Source of the DNA: an uncultured Bdellovibrionales bacterium
GTDB lineage: Bacteria > Patescibacteriota > Minisyncoccia > Moranbacterales > UBA1568
Reading direction: 5' to 3'
NCBI GenBank assembly: GCA_964398485.1
Contig: CAYNMD010000002.1
Coordinates: forward strand, 7,956 to 71,955
Length of the DNA stretch: 64,000 nt
A program made the position numbers and the translations under genes. How positions within the stretch are numbered: the stretch's first letter is position 1; each line of letters begins with the position of its first letter. Below are positions 25,177 through 46,861 of the stretch, in pieces. The notes under the pieces were generated by a model. The model was given only the letters and a program-made list of their open reading frames with translations, did no database searches and was not told the origin of the DNA.

Positions 25177-25353
25177 ATGAGTCGCGTCTGCCAACTTACC
25201 GGCCGGGGTACCCAAACCGGTAACAAAATTAGCCATTCCAAGCGTCACACTCGTCGCACGTTTGCCATCAACCTCCAGACTAAACGTATTGGTGGTATGA
25301 AGCTCCGTCTTTCAACACGAGCTATTCGCACCTTGGCTAAAAGCACTGCCTAG
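25177..25353 (+). CDS. rpmB: 50S ribosomal protein L28
   Basis: [34 protein letters not shown] matches the canonical L28 N-terminus (MSRVCQ.TGK...GN..SH..N.TKRRF.PNL). 58 aa, one of the few plus-strand genes. Confidence 0.85.
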
Positions 25354-25380
25354 CAGCTAATTTGTTTGCTCACATGAAAC

Positions 25381-25404
25381 AATCCCCGTCTTGGGGATTT
25401 TTTC
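25381..25404 (+). terminator. Rho-independent terminator after rpmB
   Basis: AAUCCCC-GUCUU-GGGGAUU followed by UUUUU. Confidence 0.6.
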
Positions 25405-25517
25405 TTGACTTTTTTTAATGGCAGGAGCATCCTGTCATGGTTGGTCGTACTACCTAATCTGACACTTGATAAAAGGTCAAGGAAAGATTCCGTAGCGTGA
25501 TCACATTCAGTTCCTTC

Positions 25518-25535
25518 GGGCGTAACGCCCATTTT
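25518..25535 (+). promoter_or_regulatory. short leader hairpin plus U-run about 35 nt upstream of the 25570 gene (possible attenuator)
   Basis: GGGCG-UAA-CGCCC then AUUUU. An AAGGA ribosome-binding site lies 7 nt before the ATG at 25570. Confidence 0.3.
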
Positions 25536-25569
25536 CATCACTCTCCTACAACGCAGACAAGGATACCTC

Positions 25570-26196
25570 ATGAGCGAAGTTGTGTCTCTCGAATCGCAAA
25601 CCACCGCCGTGGTTCCTTTCATTTCATACTTCTGTGGTGACTGGAAACTCCACGCCTTCGCGAACGCACTCGACAACTTGTCGCCGTGCCACCGTGAACG
25701 CCGACTTGGCGGTGGTTTCATCTTCCGTATCAACCAGACAGCGCTCCTCGAGTTCGATGCCATCGTGAATGGGTTCAGTACTGCACGCTTCGAGCACACG
25801 ATCATCTTTACCCACACTGGATGCCTCGCACTGCGTGATTGCAACTACTTCGCTGGACTCAGGCAAAAGCGAGAAGCTCAATTCTCTCCAGATCATGCCG
25901 GGGAGATCGCTTTCAACTCAGCTGTCCTTAAGAAGATTCGTTTCCAAACACAGCAGCTCCGTTCCCCCATCATCTGGCACTTCGGTATCGTGGAAACCGA
26001 AAAGGTGATCGATATTCGTCCCGACTCCTCTCTGGACGAGGTCCTGAGTGCTGTGATTTGGCCATTTGGACCGCCACCGCCAGAGGTGCTACAAGGAAAG
26101 ATTCGTCACGAGCGACTTGGACCAATGAACCAATCAACTCCTGGTCGGTACCAACCTGTCACTGATTGCGGACACGACAATGCTCTCACGGCCTGA
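25570..26196 (+). CDS. hypothetical protein, divergent beta-carbonic-anhydrase-like fold
   Basis: 208 aa. GGGFIFRINQTA aligns to the beta-CA FV.RN.GN motif and TIIFTHTGCLA to the I.ICGH..CG motif (HxxC). The first Zn-ligand motif is non-canonical (CGDWK). Good RBS. The antisense ORF 25350..25844 has junk composition. Confidence 0.5.
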   Translation: MSEVVSLESQTTAVVPFISYFCGDWKLHAFANALDNLSPCHRERRLGGGFIFRINQTALLEFDAIVNGFSTARFEHTIIFTHTGCLALRDCNYFAGLRQKREAQFSPDHAGEIAFNSAVLKKIRFQTQQLRSPIIWHFGIVETEKVIDIRPDSSLDEVLSAVIWPFGPPPPEVLQGKIRHERLGPMNQSTPGRYQPVTDCGHDNALTA

Positions 26197-26225
26197 CAGT
26201 TCTGCCATGATTGAGGAGTGATCCA

Positions 26226-26269
26226 GGACGCCCCTCCTTCAACGCGAGGAGGGGCGTCCACAATTTTTT
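26226..26269 (+). terminator. strong Rho-independent terminator after the 25570..26196 gene
   Basis: Perfect 12-bp GC-rich inverted repeat GGACGCCCCTCC/GGAGGGGCGTCC with a 10-nt loop, followed by ACAATTTTTT. Confidence 0.6.
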
Positions 26270-26303
26270 GATACTAAATTTTAGTTTGGTAATTCCCATC
26301 CCT

Positions 26304-27353
26304 ATGCCACTCATGAAAGAAGTTCTCAAACTCAATGAACTCCGCAGTCGAGAGTTTTCCTCACCAGCAGCTCATGATGCTCGAGCTCTTTATCAAAGCC
26401 AGCACCCGACCAATATTCTCGTCTTCAAATGTATGGATGGTCGTGTCAACCTTCCTCTTATTACCGGTATTCCCATGGGAATACTTCGGCCTTTTAGAAA
26501 TATCGGGGGAAAATTCACTCTCGGTTACCCCTACCTCGGCCGCCTCGTTCTCGACGCCAAGGAAGCAGCAATCCGTGAAGGAAGAGCGACGCTTGCTTTT
26601 TGTACCTACCATTTCTCCAAAGGAAGTGAACATCGTGGTTGTGCTGGACATGGTTATGATACTGTCGCTGCTCGCAAAGGCGCCGCTGTACTCAAAGAAG
26701 AGTTTGAAACTATTTTTGGTCACAATAATCCAGCCATCTCAGCTATCGTTGTAGGTATCGAAACCGATGAAGATGCTCTCACCTTCTGCAACACCCATGA
26801 GAAGCATGATTTTTCTATTGCTGACCATGTAGATGACAGCGATGATGAAATACGACGCGGTCTTCGCACGCTCTATCCTAACATGGAAACCCGAGTACTT
26901 AATGACCTCATGCCTCTTGCTCTCGGCAACCGAGATCATGTCGCCCGGCTACGTCGTGAAGGAAGGCCAGTTGCCGAGCTTGTTCATGGTGAAAATATTA
27001 TCTGTGTCGGACGTGGTTTTGATTGGCTTCACATGCCTAATCGGGCTCTCATCATTGGACCCTACGGCGATGCAGTTCAAACTTGGCGTGATGCAGTTCG
27101 AGTGGCAGGGAATATCGTTCTGGATAATTTCAAAAAGAAACGCGTTCCTAAAGCCCATGGGGCACTCCTTCTTGTCTCTGCTCCCTATTCAGATATGAAC
27201 GAGCGTGAACTTGCTATCGCCAAGGTAGGATATTTTACCACTGTGGCTAGTACTGTCCTTGCTCCTGTTGCTAAGAAACTCCGGCTCGAGATGCTCACAG
27301 GGGTCACCGATATGACTACCATGAAATTTCACCAAATAAAACTCAACTCATAA
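26304..27353 (+). CDS. beta-carbonic-anhydrase-like domain protein with about 150-aa C-terminal extension
   Basis: C-M-D-G-R (the CxDxR Zn-ligand/dyad motif), R-P-F-R-N-I-G-G 23 residues later (beta-CA FV.RN.GN) and EH-R-G-C-A-G (HxxCG) with beta-CA-like spacing. Start taken at the ATG at 26304 (MPLMKEVL); the longer track ORF from 26211 runs through the upstream terminator. Confidence 0.55.
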   Translation: MPLMKEVLKLNELRSREFSSPAAHDARALYQSQHPTNILVFKCMDGRVNLPLITGIPMGILRPFRNIGGKFTLGYPYLGRLVLDAKEAAIREGRATLAFCTYHFSKGSEHRGCAGHGYDTVAARKGAAVLKEEFETIFGHNNPAISAIVVGIETDEDALTFCNTHEKHDFSIADHVDDSDDEIRRGLRTLYPNMETRVLNDLMPLALGNRDHVARLRREGRPVAELVHGENIICVGRGFDWLHMPNRALIIGPYGDAVQTWRDAVRVAGNIVLDNFKKKRVPKAHGALLLVSAPYSDMNERELAIAKVGYFTTVASTVLAPVAKKLRLEMLTGVTDMTTMKFHQIKLNS

Positions 27354-27370
27354 ATTTCACGGCCAATCTA

Positions 27371-27404
27371 AAACCGCCCAAAAGGGCGGTTTTAGATTAT
27401 TTTT
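27371..27404. terminator. bidirectional Rho-independent terminator between the beta-CA-like gene and tRNA-Pro
   Basis: AAACCGCCC-AAAA-GGGCGGTTT, flanked by an A-run on one side and a T-run on the other. Confidence 0.6.
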
Positions 27405-27405
27405 G

Positions 27406-27476
27406 TCGGGCTGCCGGGAATTGAACCCGGGCTACATCCACCCCATGGACGCGTACTACCGTTATACTACAGCCCG
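27406..27476 (-). tRNA. tRNA-Pro (anticodon GGG)
   Basis: Hand-folded 71 nt: acceptor CGGGCUG/CAGCCCG, U8-A9, D-stem GUAU/GUAC, anticodon stem CGUCC/GGAUG, loop AUGGGGU (U33, G37), T-arm CCGGG-UUCAAUU-CCCGG, discriminator A. No encoded CCA. Confidence 0.8.
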
Positions 27477-27479
27477 CTG

Positions 27480-27977
27480 TACTTATTTTGAACAGAGTGA
27501 GCATATCAGGATTTAAGATAAATTGAAAGACCGGCCTGGGGATCGCCCGTTGGTCGGTCTCGTGACTGCTGGGGTTCCGGCAGCTCGGTTGCGGCTCAGC
27601 CTGATTCAGGCCTGCTGCGAAGTGCGGTACTCGTAACGGTGCTGCCCGTCGTGACGGACGCCCTCCGTATGAGTACCAGTGGCGTAATCGGTGATATGCA
27701 CAACAGCAATCACCTTTGGTTGATTGGATCCCGCAACTGGAGTGGCGGGGGCGACAGCGGGTTGAGCCTTGTCAGTTTGACCTAGCCCCAACACTTCACG
27801 AATTTGCCTTAGCACGATGTGCTCCTCATTTGATGATTCCAAAACCACTACAGCCAAAGCTTTGGTGGCACTACTTACCTCAAGGAAATACTTCCGAGAG
27901 ATAAAAATATTCTATACCTCTTCTCATTTTCTGCAAGGGGGATATGCAAAAGCCCCTCAAGTGAGGGGCTTTACAAG
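27480..27977. other. GC-rich (about 58%) roughly 500-nt segment with no convincing ORF; candidate structured RNA or decayed gene
   Basis: Local GC is well above the neighbours. It contains a 9-bp hairpin (AGACCGGCC...GGTCGGTCT, 27524..27556). The only ORF of 60 aa or more (27606..27857, minus) starts with TTG and has no RBS. Confidence 0.25.
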
Positions 27978-44765: not shown

Positions 44766-46241
44766 ATGCATCCAGAGCCACGTCGCTTCTCTCTTGGGAC
44801 ATCTAACCTCACTGAAGCATCAAACCCTTCCTCAAAACGCCCTTTCCTGCGATGGCTTTTGTTGGGGATCAGTTTTTTCTTCATGGCTGCGTTGGGCGTA
44901 GCCGTTATCTTTGGGGTTCGTTTCACTCAGGCGCTCCAATTTGAAAATACTCCTATCTCATTTTTTGAAGGCATTCGTCTTATCGGAAGCAGTGTCTTCG
45001 CTCATCCAGAAGAAGTAAAAGGATATCGAGATGGACGCATCAACATCCTTCTCATGGGCCGAGCTGGGAAACGCTATCCAGGCAAGAATCTCACCGATAC
45101 GGTCATGGTACTATCGCTCGAAACCCAGTCAAAGAAGGCAGCCCTCCTTTCTCTCCCTCGTGACCTCTTAGCTCCAATCCCCGAAACGAATAACTCCGTC
45201 AAAATTAACACCCTCTATCAATACGGCCTTCTAAGTGGCGATGGTGCTGAACTCATCAAAAAAAGCGTTGGCACCATCACCGGGTTACCAATTCACTACT
45301 TCGCCACTATCGATTTCGATGGTTTCGAAAAAGTTATAGATACCCTCGGTGGTATCCACATCGAAGTACTCCGTGACATACGCGATACGAGATATCCTGG
45401 ACCCAACTATAGCTATGAAACCTTTGAACTGAGGAAGGGCTGGCAGACACTCGATGGAAAAACAGCGCTCAAATATGCTCGTATGCGCCATGATGATCCA
45501 GAAGGTGACTTCGGAAGAGCCAAAAGACAACAGCAAATTCTTCAGGCTGTTCGTGAAAAAACTCTCTCTCTTCCTACTATTCTCAATCCAGTTATCCTCA
45601 CCGGCCTCCTCGAAGATCTTGGGGAAAGCGTTGATACTGACATTACTCCAGAAGCGGCCAGGTCACTGCTTCCGCTTGTCGAAAAAATTGATGCCAAGAC
45701 CGTCACAACCGTCGTTGTCGATGCTTGGAAAAAAGAGAGTCTCCTCCGAGTAGTCCATATCGACACCCCTACTGGCCGTGCCTTTGCTCTCTCACCAAGA
45801 AGCGGTACCTGGCAAGAGATACAATCACTCGCCAAGAATATCTTTGAGAGTGAGCTCATGAACAAGCGTCGTGATGAAATCATACGTGAGGCAGTCTCAA
45901 TCCTCGTTGTCGTCCCGCCTGAACAAGCCTCTACGGGTCAAGACCTCGTTCAAGACATCAATGACACATTCCCTATCAAAAAAATCCAATTAAAAACATG
46001 GCCTGGGCTCGGGGCAGCAACCGAAGACATGCTCATTGGCTCAACACAAACCAGCATCTACACTATCGATAGCCTCATCGGACGCTACGATTTGAAATTC
46101 ACAGAAACATCGCCGACAAATCTCCCGGCTCATTTCCCCACGGCCGACCTCGTGATACTGTATACACAGAAGGATATCCCTGGGCTCATTCATGAAATCC
46201 CACCCGAAGAATTAGGAGATTTTGCTGAGCCAGAGTTCTAA
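44766..46241 (+). CDS. LytR-CpsA-Psr (LCP) family cell-envelope phosphotransferase
   Basis: N-terminal TM, then INILLMGRAG...DTVMVLSL...LSLPRDL LCP-domain signature; 491 aa. Confidence 0.75.
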   Translation: MHPEPRRFSLGTSNLTEASNPSSKRPFLRWLLLGISFFFMAALGVAVIFGVRFTQALQFENTPISFFEGIRLIGSSVFAHPEEVKGYRDGRINILLMGRAGKRYPGKNLTDTVMVLSLETQSKKAALLSLPRDLLAPIPETNNSVKINTLYQYGLLSGDGAELIKKSVGTITGLPIHYFATIDFDGFEKVIDTLGGIHIEVLRDIRDTRYPGPNYSYETFELRKGWQTLDGKTALKYARMRHDDPEGDFGRAKRQQQILQAVREKTLSLPTILNPVILTGLLEDLGESVDTDITPEAARSLLPLVEKIDAKTVTTVVVDAWKKESLLRVVHIDTPTGRAFALSPRSGTWQEIQSLAKNIFESELMNKRRDEIIREAVSILVVVPPEQASTGQDLVQDINDTFPIKKIQLKTWPGLGAATEDMLIGSTQTSIYTIDSLIGRYDLKFTETSPTNLPAHFPTADLVILYTQKDIPGLIHEIPPEELGDFAEPEF

Positions 46242-46312
46242 TGTACTCCCCTATGTCACTCCTGTCTCGACTATTCCAGTCAACCAAATCATCAACTCCT
46301 GTTTCCTCTGAG

Positions 46313-46861
46313 ATGAATACTGTTTTTGTTATTGGACTTGGCAACCCTGGGAAAAAATACGCCCATACCAGACACAATTTCGGCTGGCTCACACTCGATG
46401 CGCTGCACATGGAGTGGCAAGCCAGTGAATGGCATCAAGAAAAAAAATTCCAAGTAGAAGTAAGTGAGGCTCTTTTGCAAGGAAGAAAGATTCTCCTCGT
46501 TAAACCCCAAACGTTCATGAATAATTCCGGCGAGTGCGTCCGGGCCATTCTCGGTTTTCACAAAGCACTCCCCAAAGATATCATCGTGCTCCATGATGAA
46601 GTTGACATTCCTTTTGGGAAAATAAAAACTACGGTTTCTTCTCGAGCGGCCGGCCACAATGGTGTCAAAGATATCATCGACAAACTCGGTACCCAAGACT
46701 TCTGTCGCCTTCGCCTCGGAGTAGGTAAATCAGCCAATCCGCATATCTCCACCGCTGACCATGTTCTCCAGAATTTTTCACCCGAAGAGGAAAAAGAGCT
46801 CCCTCACCTCTTTGAACAAATTGAGTCACTCCTCAAAGAGGTCCTGAATCGTTCAGAGTAG
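46313..46861 (+). CDS. pth: peptidyl-tRNA hydrolase
   Basis: MNTVFVIGLGNPGKKYAHTRHNFGW canonical Pth N-terminus. Start trimmed from the longer track ORF at 46241. Confidence 0.85.
   Translation: MNTVFVIGLGNPGKKYAHTRHNFGWLTLDALHMEWQASEWHQEKKFQVEVSEALLQGRKILLVKPQTFMNNSGECVRAILGFHKALPKDIIVLHDEVDIPFGKIKTTVSSRAAGHNGVKDIIDKLGTQDFCRLRLGVGKSANPHISTADHVLQNFSPEEEKELPHLFEQIESLLKEVLNRSE

Follow-up and report, generated by a model that had tools for sequence, protein, structure and literature searches.

A CsoSCA2-type carbonic anhydrase gene and its small beta-carbonic anhydrase-like neighbour, preceded by a structured leader RNA, in a Moranbacterales contig

Why a bacterium with a small genome should keep, side by side, two genes that both carry the zinc-site motifs of beta-carbonic anhydrases (beta-CAs), each closed by its own terminator, is the question raised by positions 25177-27404 of a 64,000-nucleotide stretch of DNA (the window; contig CAYNMD010000002.1, positions 7,956 to 71,955 of the forward strand, assembly GCA_964398485.1) from an uncultured bacterium of the Moranbacterales. 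Nearly all long open reading frames (ORFs) of the window lie on the minus strand, and this block consists of three plus-strand genes: rpmB, a gene for 208 amino acids (gene 1) and a gene for 349 amino acids (gene 2). A previous description of the block made from its letters only (the sequence-only reading) had listed rpmB, the two genes, three terminators and a tRNA-Pro, all of which were found to be present (Table 1), and had interpreted the two genes as tandem beta-CA-like paralogues. Within the window, the pattern C-x-D-x-[RK]...H-x-x-C was carried by the ORFs of gene 1 and gene 2 only. The reading favoured here, and held to be probable, is that both belong to the beta-CA superfamily, are transcribed separately and are found paired in other genomes as well.

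Gene 2 is a member of CsoSCA2, the compact, non-carboxysomal CsoSCA family. Its product matched the Pfam profile CsoSCA_cat (PF20686) with 29.9 bits (E = 4.8e-7), which passes the gathering score of 21.5, and scored 35.6 bits against TIGR02701, the equivalog model of carboxysomal CsoSCA, far under the cut-off of 241. When it was compared with the Protein Data Bank (PDB) using phmmer, CsoSCA chains alone were matched at E <0.001 (2.7e-5 to 1.2e-4); the stretch YHFSKGSEHRGCAGHG of gene 2 was aligned to YHFSTSDPTHSGCAAHG of 2FGY, and a further weak match was obtained in the C-terminal half. More than 1,410 homologues were found in the protein database, mostly unnamed or "hypothetical", the named ones being from Moraniibacteriota, Kaiserbacteria, Paceibacterota, Minisyncoccia and one Desulfobulbaceae metagenome-assembled genome.

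The AlphaFold2 (AF2) model of gene 2 (pLDDT 94.5, pTM 0.91) showed two N-terminal helices (residues 1-35) followed by two alpha/beta domains, a catalytic domain at about residues 36-195 and a degenerate second beta-CA domain at about residues 196-349. Its best Foldseek matches in the PDB were 2fgy, 9g4t and 8thm (E ~1e-15, TM-score 0.73-0.78, ~385 columns), followed by 1ddz, a duplicated beta-CA of a red alga; further down the list, single-domain beta-CAs were mixed with metal-binding proteins of low TM-score. The C-terminal domain of about 150 residues, previously described as being of unknown function, corresponds to the second, degenerate beta-CA domain of CsoSCA, and a conserved Cys/His ligand set was not seen in residues 196-349 of an alignment of 100 homologues.

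The sequence-only reading had placed gene 2 correctly in the beta-CA superfamily and had picked its catalytic motifs correctly, these being CMDGR (43-47), RNIGG (65-69) and the GCAG of HRGCAG (110-115). Its choice of H110 (in HRGC) as the zinc-binding His has to be replaced: in the alignment of 100 homologues C43, M44, D45, G46, R47, H103 and C113 were invariant and H110 was conserved at <90%. H103 (in YHF) and C113 align with the His and Cys of YHFS...GCA in 2FGY, whose zinc ligands are Cys173, His242 and Cys253, and from this alignment the His ligand of gene 2 is predicted to be H103.

CsoSCA2 was defined bioinformatically by Sutter, Kerfeld and Scott (2022, PMC9164163) as the CsoSCA homologues found outside carboxysome loci, with an N-terminus shortened to two helices (~40 residues), one active and one defunct domain, and all catalytic residues retained; the family was reported in Moranbacteria and other phyla of the candidate phyla radiation (CPR) and was described as unstudied. 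Gene 2 fits this description in its type of locus, its two helices of ~35-40 residues, its active and defunct domains and its full set of catalytic residues, with no difference found, and neither a conserved small neighbour nor a leader RNA is reported there. No biochemistry on CsoSCA2 was found in the literature mentioning the family, and the later mention that was found uses it only as an outgroup (PMC12646314).

Carboxysomal CsoSCA (2FGY, 9G4T, 8THM; TIGR02701) resembles gene 2 in its two-domain fold, in the aligned YHFS...GCAGHG and in the presence of CxDxR, but the identity is 16-18% and gene 2 is without the ~144-residue N-terminal domain and the Rubisco-binding peptide. An assignment of gene 2 to carboxysomal CsoSCA proper was rejected on its TIGR02701 score, on the position of its catalytic Cys (residue 43) and on the lack of a cso operon. 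Its neighbours encode S7, S12, an M50 peptidase, L28, NDK, MBL, ComEC and NrdR; no carboxysome genes were found in the locus, among its Pfam-annotated neighbours or in near-identical contigs, and no Rubisco large-subunit signature was found in the window. Gene 2 would be a cytosolic CsoSCA2, a fused pseudo-dimer with one active zinc domain and one degenerate domain, which most likely interconverts CO2 and bicarbonate for this small-genome bacterium.

Gene 1 was compared with the corresponding gene of L001, an 82%-related contig (loci compared with the window are numbered with the prefix L): codon positions 1, 2 and 3 differed at 36, 19 and 116 sites, and of the changed codons 85 were synonymous and 42 non-synonymous. 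Because of this codon-position pattern, gene 1 is taken to be a real plus-strand gene whose protein is kept by purifying selection. When 1.84 billion representatives were searched exhaustively with phmmer, 14 proteins were returned as relatives, and the homologues, 30-43% identical, represented 14 clusters. A word-indexed protein search returned gene 1 itself only, or five proteins when the family alignment was used, and a narrower alignment used as a locus query found one genome locus (L007) and none in the JGI metagenomes.

The AF2 model of gene 1, built from a 14-sequence alignment (pLDDT 87.4, pTM 0.80), was confident over residues 11-185, and its top 50 Foldseek matches in the PDB were all beta-CAs or CS2 hydrolase (probability 0.84-1.0). 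The family profile, searched against all PDB sequences, returned two chains only, both small beta-CAs: 3las, in which HHTDCG was covered (E = 0.19), and 5ztp, in a sub-threshold match from CMDARL through HHTDC (E = 2.5). According to the model, gene 1 has a beta-CA-like core, and the fold proposed for it earlier is borne out together with the zinc-site signature C-x-D-x-(R/K)...H-x-x-C.

The motifs of gene 1 are CGDWK (22-26), GFIFRINQ (50-56) and IIFTHTGC (78-85). The family alignment keeps C22, D24, H82-x-x-C85, A87 and R101, with H82 and C85 invariant and C22 at least 90% conserved. CGDWK occurs in the proteins of the window and of L001, and most other members have C-x-D-x-R (CGDPR, CSDTR, CCDPR and others). 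The first Cys motif had been regarded as displaced; this was not upheld, the spacing from C22 to H82 being 60 residues and the distance from the first Cys to the His in canonical beta-CAs being about 60 residues. The putative zinc site probably consists of C22, D24, H82 and C85, with K26 at the position of the Arg. Since this Cys/Asp...His-x-x-Cys site is retained, gene 1 probably binds zinc, and it may be described as a small protein of one domain whose core is beta-CA-like. The term "tandem paralogs" did not hold: hhalign of the gene 1 family against the CsoSCA2 family gave a probability of 3%, and only the CxDxR...GG stretch was aligned.

The recurrence of the pair was examined at the slot 5' of CsoSCA2, and the small gene found there is referred to as the partner. 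A partner was found in this slot in ten related loci with usable upstream sequence, four of them of the gene 1 type (the window, L001, L007 and L088) and six of a second type, designated HWPC (L002, L089/L090, L091, L092/L093, L094 and L098). Slot genes are small, without a Pfam match and on the plus strand in all relatives but L095. At L095, where CsoSCA2 is 71% identical, a Transposase_mut gene (321-1229) lies 5' of CsoSCA2, and partner gene and leader are absent. The occupant of the slot can differ between very close relatives: in L002/L003 CsoSCA2 is 95% identical to that of the window and the flanks of the slot are conserved, and the slot ORF, which in L002 carries AICGDGRR and IHHWPCARG, is unalignable with gene 1. 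The slot, lying between a conserved leader and a conserved terminator, looks like the site of cassette replacement through recombination in the conserved flanks.

A gene 1 hidden Markov model (HMM) gave zero matches on 80 metagenomic CsoSCA2 loci. A scan of the same 80 loci for C-x-D...H-x-x-C retained 23 ORFs out of 1,166, most of them directly beside CsoSCA2, on either side of it and in either orientation. These ORFs, through which the HWPC type was recognised, form one family in which Cys, Asp, His and Cys are invariant; two members gave sub-threshold Pro_CA matches (5.9e-5 and 0.047), and the best PDB match of the family profile was the beta-CA 1ddz, at H-x-x-C-G (E = 0.022). Distinct CsoSCA2 loci flanked by 800 bp or more on each side numbered 53, and in 17 of these a partner stood next to CsoSCA2, be it in tandem, convergently or divergently, a count that includes deliberately chosen relatives and HMM seed sequences. 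The conservation of the pair in relatives, which had been put forward as a check, was in this way confirmed as a recurrent adjacency of partner and CsoSCA2.

The small beta-CAs of Cab type (1G5C, 3LAS, 1YLK, 5ZTP; Pro_CA and Pro_CA_2) resemble the partners in length (~170-210 amino acids), alpha/beta core and C-x-D-x-R...H-x-x-C, and the HTDC of the gene 1 family resembles the HHTDCG of 3LAS. Unlike them, neither partner family reaches the Pfam cut-offs, the canonical R-N-x-[AG]-N is replaced by R-x-R-x-G-G or H-x(4)-G-G, and the partners have extra C-terminal elements (WHFG...WPFG). Within the beta-CA fold, the gene 1 and HWPC families are branches that diverge very strongly and have no earlier description.

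Distant HWPC-type partners (Table 1) were convergent or divergent to CsoSCA2 and not in tandem, and were often without the Arg of C-x-D-x-R (CADGD, CSDCD, CGDAD), with Cys, Asp, His and Cys kept. Two upstream neighbours of CsoSCA2 were of other kinds: L070 491-922 (+) is a true Pro_CA_2 member (1.4e-20), and L032 2926-3849 (+), a 171-308-amino-acid ORF, carries CMDTR...THERC and has no Pfam match. A DUF5701 neighbour (L096) and an MBL-fold neighbour (L011/L013) were ruled out as members of the partner families.

In every locus the GC3 of the partner gene is high (0.57-0.76) in comparison with its own genome. The opposite strand had been called at the partner slot in L001 (5233-5673, -) and L002 (2857-3504, -), probably because the partner genes are GC3-rich, and in the window an ORF at 25350-25844 (-) overlaps gene 1, long ORFs being open on both strands. 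GC3 richness and wrong-strand calls may help to explain why so few relatives of the partners are present in protein databases.

A structured leader was found upstream of the partner gene, whichever of the two types it belonged to, at 11 loci. It consists of helices P1 (UGGUCG/UGAUCA), P2 (CUAC/GUAG) and P3 (AAUC/GAUU) with a variable tip, was folded by RNAalifold as one long imperfect hairpin and has the consensus GGUUGGUCG...AAUCUGAC-[variable hairpin]-AAGGAAAGAUUYCGUAGCGUGAUCAC. In an independent MAFFT alignment (11 sequences, 19 pairs), 96.7% of cells were paired and five pairs were compensatory; the observed values were reached by 0-2 of 500 shuffles on four of five measures and by 29 of 500 on the fifth, which counts further pair types, and in slid controls the paired share fell to 25-43%. 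A covariance model from nine copies found two more, in L098 (71 bits) and L097 (35 bits, E = 3e-7). The L097 copy precedes a 27-30%-identical relative of gene 1, between an SLT-domain gene and a RecA-like ORF, on a contig without CsoSCA2, so that the leader tracks the partner gene and not CsoSCA2. No match to Rfam 15 (4,227 families) was obtained at E up to 1 for the window region and six related loci, neither the rest of the window nor the other 80 loci contained a second copy, and viral contigs gave no match. A leader peptide was considered and rejected, the ATG at the leader start being absent in L088, L092 and L094.

Downstream of all 11 leaders lies a CU-rich box, of which UUCCUU is complementary both to the AAGGAA of the leader and to the Shine-Dalgarno sequence AAGGA (25559-25563). 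A GC hairpin with a U-run follows in four leaders and covaries (in L001, L002 and L098), and in four others a U-run stands directly after the element. Leader and CU-rich box together resemble the expression platform of a riboswitch or attenuator: like such leaders, they have a covarying structure from the predicted transcription start, a CU-box and, in some loci, a terminator hairpin; unlike described RNA families, the leader has no Rfam match and is represented by 11 examples from one CPR clade. Expression of gene 1 might be set by the leader hairpin, acting through a switch between CU-box and Shine-Dalgarno sequence or as an attenuator.

The promoter-like pair directly 5' of the leader is supported by a TTGAC box that is aligned in all leaders reaching that far upstream, with the leader ~30 nt downstream; neither this pair, which has a weak -10 element, nor that of gene 2 was reported by a consensus promoter scan. 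A hairpin with a U-run stands between partner gene and CsoSCA2 in 10 of 10 tandem loci, the stem sequence differing from locus to locus, and after it a TTGATA box is found in L088 and L089 and TCGATA in L098. Because a strong terminator is present in all ten loci and a promoter-like box in several, partner gene and CsoSCA2 look separately transcribed, and the separate conserved terminators and promoters of the two genes suggest differential control.

Several observations weigh against the favoured reading of two paired beta-CA-superfamily genes. The Pro_CA profile check proposed for gene 1 failed, with no match to Pfam or NCBIfam at E up to 10, Pro_CA included, and Pro_CA was reached by 2 of the 14 family members, with a best E of 0.02. 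The TM-scores of the gene 1 model to beta-CAs are modest (0.33-0.46, Foldseek). The Arg of the catalytic dyad is replaced by Lys (K26) in gene 1 of the window, and its second Cys is followed by Leu-Ala, the canonical beta-CAs having Gly-[AG] there. The comparison of the gene 1 and HWPC families by hhalign showed a shared motif register but was weak (E = 0.0014, probability 17%). About two thirds of the well-flanked CsoSCA2 loci are without an adjacent partner, the 2.7-kb contig of L097 has a partner homologue and no CsoSCA2, and the strong terminator between gene 1 and gene 2 means that co-expression is not implied. The leader set, finally, is made up of 11 related sequences from one CPR clade, and the window copy folds with a z-score of only -1.15.

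That gene 1 and the HWPC partners are non-catalytic, serving as subunits that dock on CsoSCA2 or as sensors of bicarbonate/CO2 or zinc, was judged rather unlikely. Such a role would suit the Lys at the dyad position of gene 1 and the absence of the Arg in most HWPC proteins beside distant CsoSCA2 (CADGD, CGDAD, CSDCD, CPDGF), as well as the recurrence of the adjacency in varied orientation and the suggestion by Sutter et al. (PMC9164163) that homodimer contacts may have been lost from compact CsoSCA2, which could enter into complexes of another kind; on the other hand, Cys, Asp, His and Cys are invariant in both families, as an intact metal site needs, and a conserved terminator with separate promoters speaks against the stoichiometric co-expression of a subunit. 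Another chemistry on the beta-CA fold, with gene 1 acting on COS, CS2 or another heterocumulene and CsoSCA2 processing the CO2 released, is distinctly improbable. CS2 hydrolase (3teo, 3ten) is indeed among the fold neighbours of gene 1, the pocket of the family is strongly diverged (R-x-R-x-G-G and HTDC-A/L-A against the canonical R-N-x-[AG]-N and H-x-x-C-G) and a dedicated leader fits a conditionally needed activity; however, COS and CS2 hydrolases, as far as they have been characterised, retain canonical beta-CA features, whereas gene 1 has no Pro_CA match, and the neighbouring genes give no hint of sulfur or cyanate metabolism.

Very little credence was given to the possibility that gene 1 merely mimics beta-CA motifs, being an unrelated small alpha/beta protein or a mis-called ORF. 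The missing Pfam and NCBIfam matches, TM-scores <0.5 and the opposite-strand calls in L001 and L002 would be expected of a mimic, but the codon-position pattern backs the plus frame, homologues at 30-43% identity are spread over 14 clusters, all of the 50 top structural neighbours have the beta-CA fold, and the sole two PDB profile matches are beta-CAs aligned exactly at the two zinc motifs. Acquisition of the block as a horizontal island at tRNA-Pro, an idea raised by the sequence-only reading, found hardly any favour either. Gene 1, with a GC content of 0.53 and a GC3 of 0.57, does lie above the window (0.46), a high GC3 is common to the partner genes of every locus, and unalignable slot alleles occur in genomes with 95%-identical CsoSCA2; yet the whole neighbourhood, including tRNA, ndk, MBL, ComEC and NrdR, is syntenic in relatives, the composition of gene 2 is ordinary, no integrase or repeats were seen among the Pfam-annotated neighbours, and the signal of exchange is confined to the partner cassette rather than the block.

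Under the favoured reading of two separately transcribed, recurrently paired beta-CA-superfamily genes, gene 1 may be a second, conditionally expressed zinc enzyme, or a subunit, acting on CO2/HCO3- or a similar small molecule. A bolder version, in which the leader is a new class of riboswitch or attenuator for an undescribed pair of beta-CA-fold protein families, perhaps sensing inorganic carbon, pH or zinc, and the small proteins are CsoSCA2 partners in a two-component inorganic-carbon module of CPR bacteria instead of CsoSCA2 being a solitary housekeeping enzyme, was regarded as improbable. CsoSCA2 occurs widely, and the paper that named it raised the questions of why beta-CAs so deeply divergent are common and whether they enter into other complexes (PMC9164163). 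The recurrent neighbour with a zinc signature, drawn from two families that swap, the dedicated leader RNA and the separate terminators and promoters provide handles on that question. CsoSCA2 itself being already known, the new and testable part is the adjacency of the partner families to it together with the dedicated leader RNA. That two carbonic anhydrase-superfamily genes and a regulatory RNA are kept in tiny CPR genomes suggests that inorganic-carbon or related small-molecule chemistry matters to these bacteria.

Table 1. Positions of the features of the block in the window and of leader copies and HWPC-type partners at other loci.
Feature	Position	Strand	Details
rpmB (ribosomal protein L28, 58 aa)	25177-25353	+	Pfam PF00830 Ribosomal_L28, 5e-17; TIGR00009, 1.6e-17
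Terminator-like hairpin and T-run after rpmB	25381-25409	+	hairpin 25381-25399; kept in L002, L089/L090, L098
Promoter-like pair TTGACT, 17 nt, CATCCT	25405-25433	+	putative, read from the sequence; directly 5' of leader
Structured leader, ~66 nt	25439-25504	+	imperfect hairpin; 11 loci
CU-rich box, GC hairpin and U-run	25510-25540	+	possible expression platform; box GUUCCUUC (25510-25517), hairpin GGGCG-UAA-CGCCC (25518-25530)
Gene 1, 208 aa	25570-26196	+	beta-CA-fold, "HT[DG]C/WHFG" type
Terminator between gene 1 and gene 2	26226-26269	+	14-bp stem (26226-26259) with 10 GC pairs, then T-run
Promoter-like pair TTGATA, 16 nt, TAATTC	26268-26295	+	putative, read from the sequence; 5' of gene 2
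Gene 2, 349 aa, CsoSCA2-type beta-carbonic anhydrase	26304-27353	+	likely start ATG 26304
Terminator 3' of gene 2	27365-27404	+	15-pair stem (27365-27398), then T-run
tRNA-Pro(GGG)	27405-27476	-	ARAGORN; Rfam 57.6 bits
Leader copies	L001 5134; L002 2789; L007 106; L088 2042; L089 4167; L091 1320		
Leader copies	L092 4076; L094 2058; L098 113-185; L097 1442-1509		
HWPC-type slot ORFs	L002 2929-3543; L089 4278-4919; L092 4191-4829; L094 2181-2846; L098 247-873		
Distant HWPC-type partners	L017 5136-5711; L018 1394-2032; L019 5133-6044; L020 3405-4031; L024 3265-3837	-	
Distant HWPC-type partners	L025 5090-5701; L035 1487-2065; L050 2950-3720; L051 5109-5693	-	
Distant HWPC-type partner	L037 49-723	+	

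The block had been described as one of two places in the window with plus-strand genes, which is roughly right, the other clear plus-strand block being 44766-46861. Raised local GC had also been claimed, and this stands for gene 1 (0.534, GC3 0.574) and rpmB (0.514) but not for gene 2, whose 0.475 differs little from the 0.462 of the window. The order S7-S12-M50 peptidase-(rpmB)-partner-CsoSCA2-tRNA-...-ndk-MBL-ComEC-NrdR was found again in relatives. In this order rpmB is a syntenic neighbour that lies outside the module; it is located 5' of the partner gene in L002, L088 and L090 and not in L001 and L092. A tRNA is in the equivalent place in L002, L088, L090, L091 and L094, and was typed as Pro(GGG) in the window only.

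A contig from ENA (ERZ17987007, locus L005) was at first sight a second context of an identical gene 1 and was rejected as such, since it is from the same genome and differs by a 1-base deletion that splits gene 2. The deletion is probably an assembly error; it divides CsoSCA2 into calls of 146 and 91 amino acids and creates the spurious short cluster members P0139, P0140 and P0143. Between tRNA-Pro and ndk, the ~500 bp at 27480-27977 have a GC content of 0.52, only short ORFs and no Rfam match, and in relatives this gap holds differing short, unannotated minus-strand calls (80-113 amino acids in L001 and L004).

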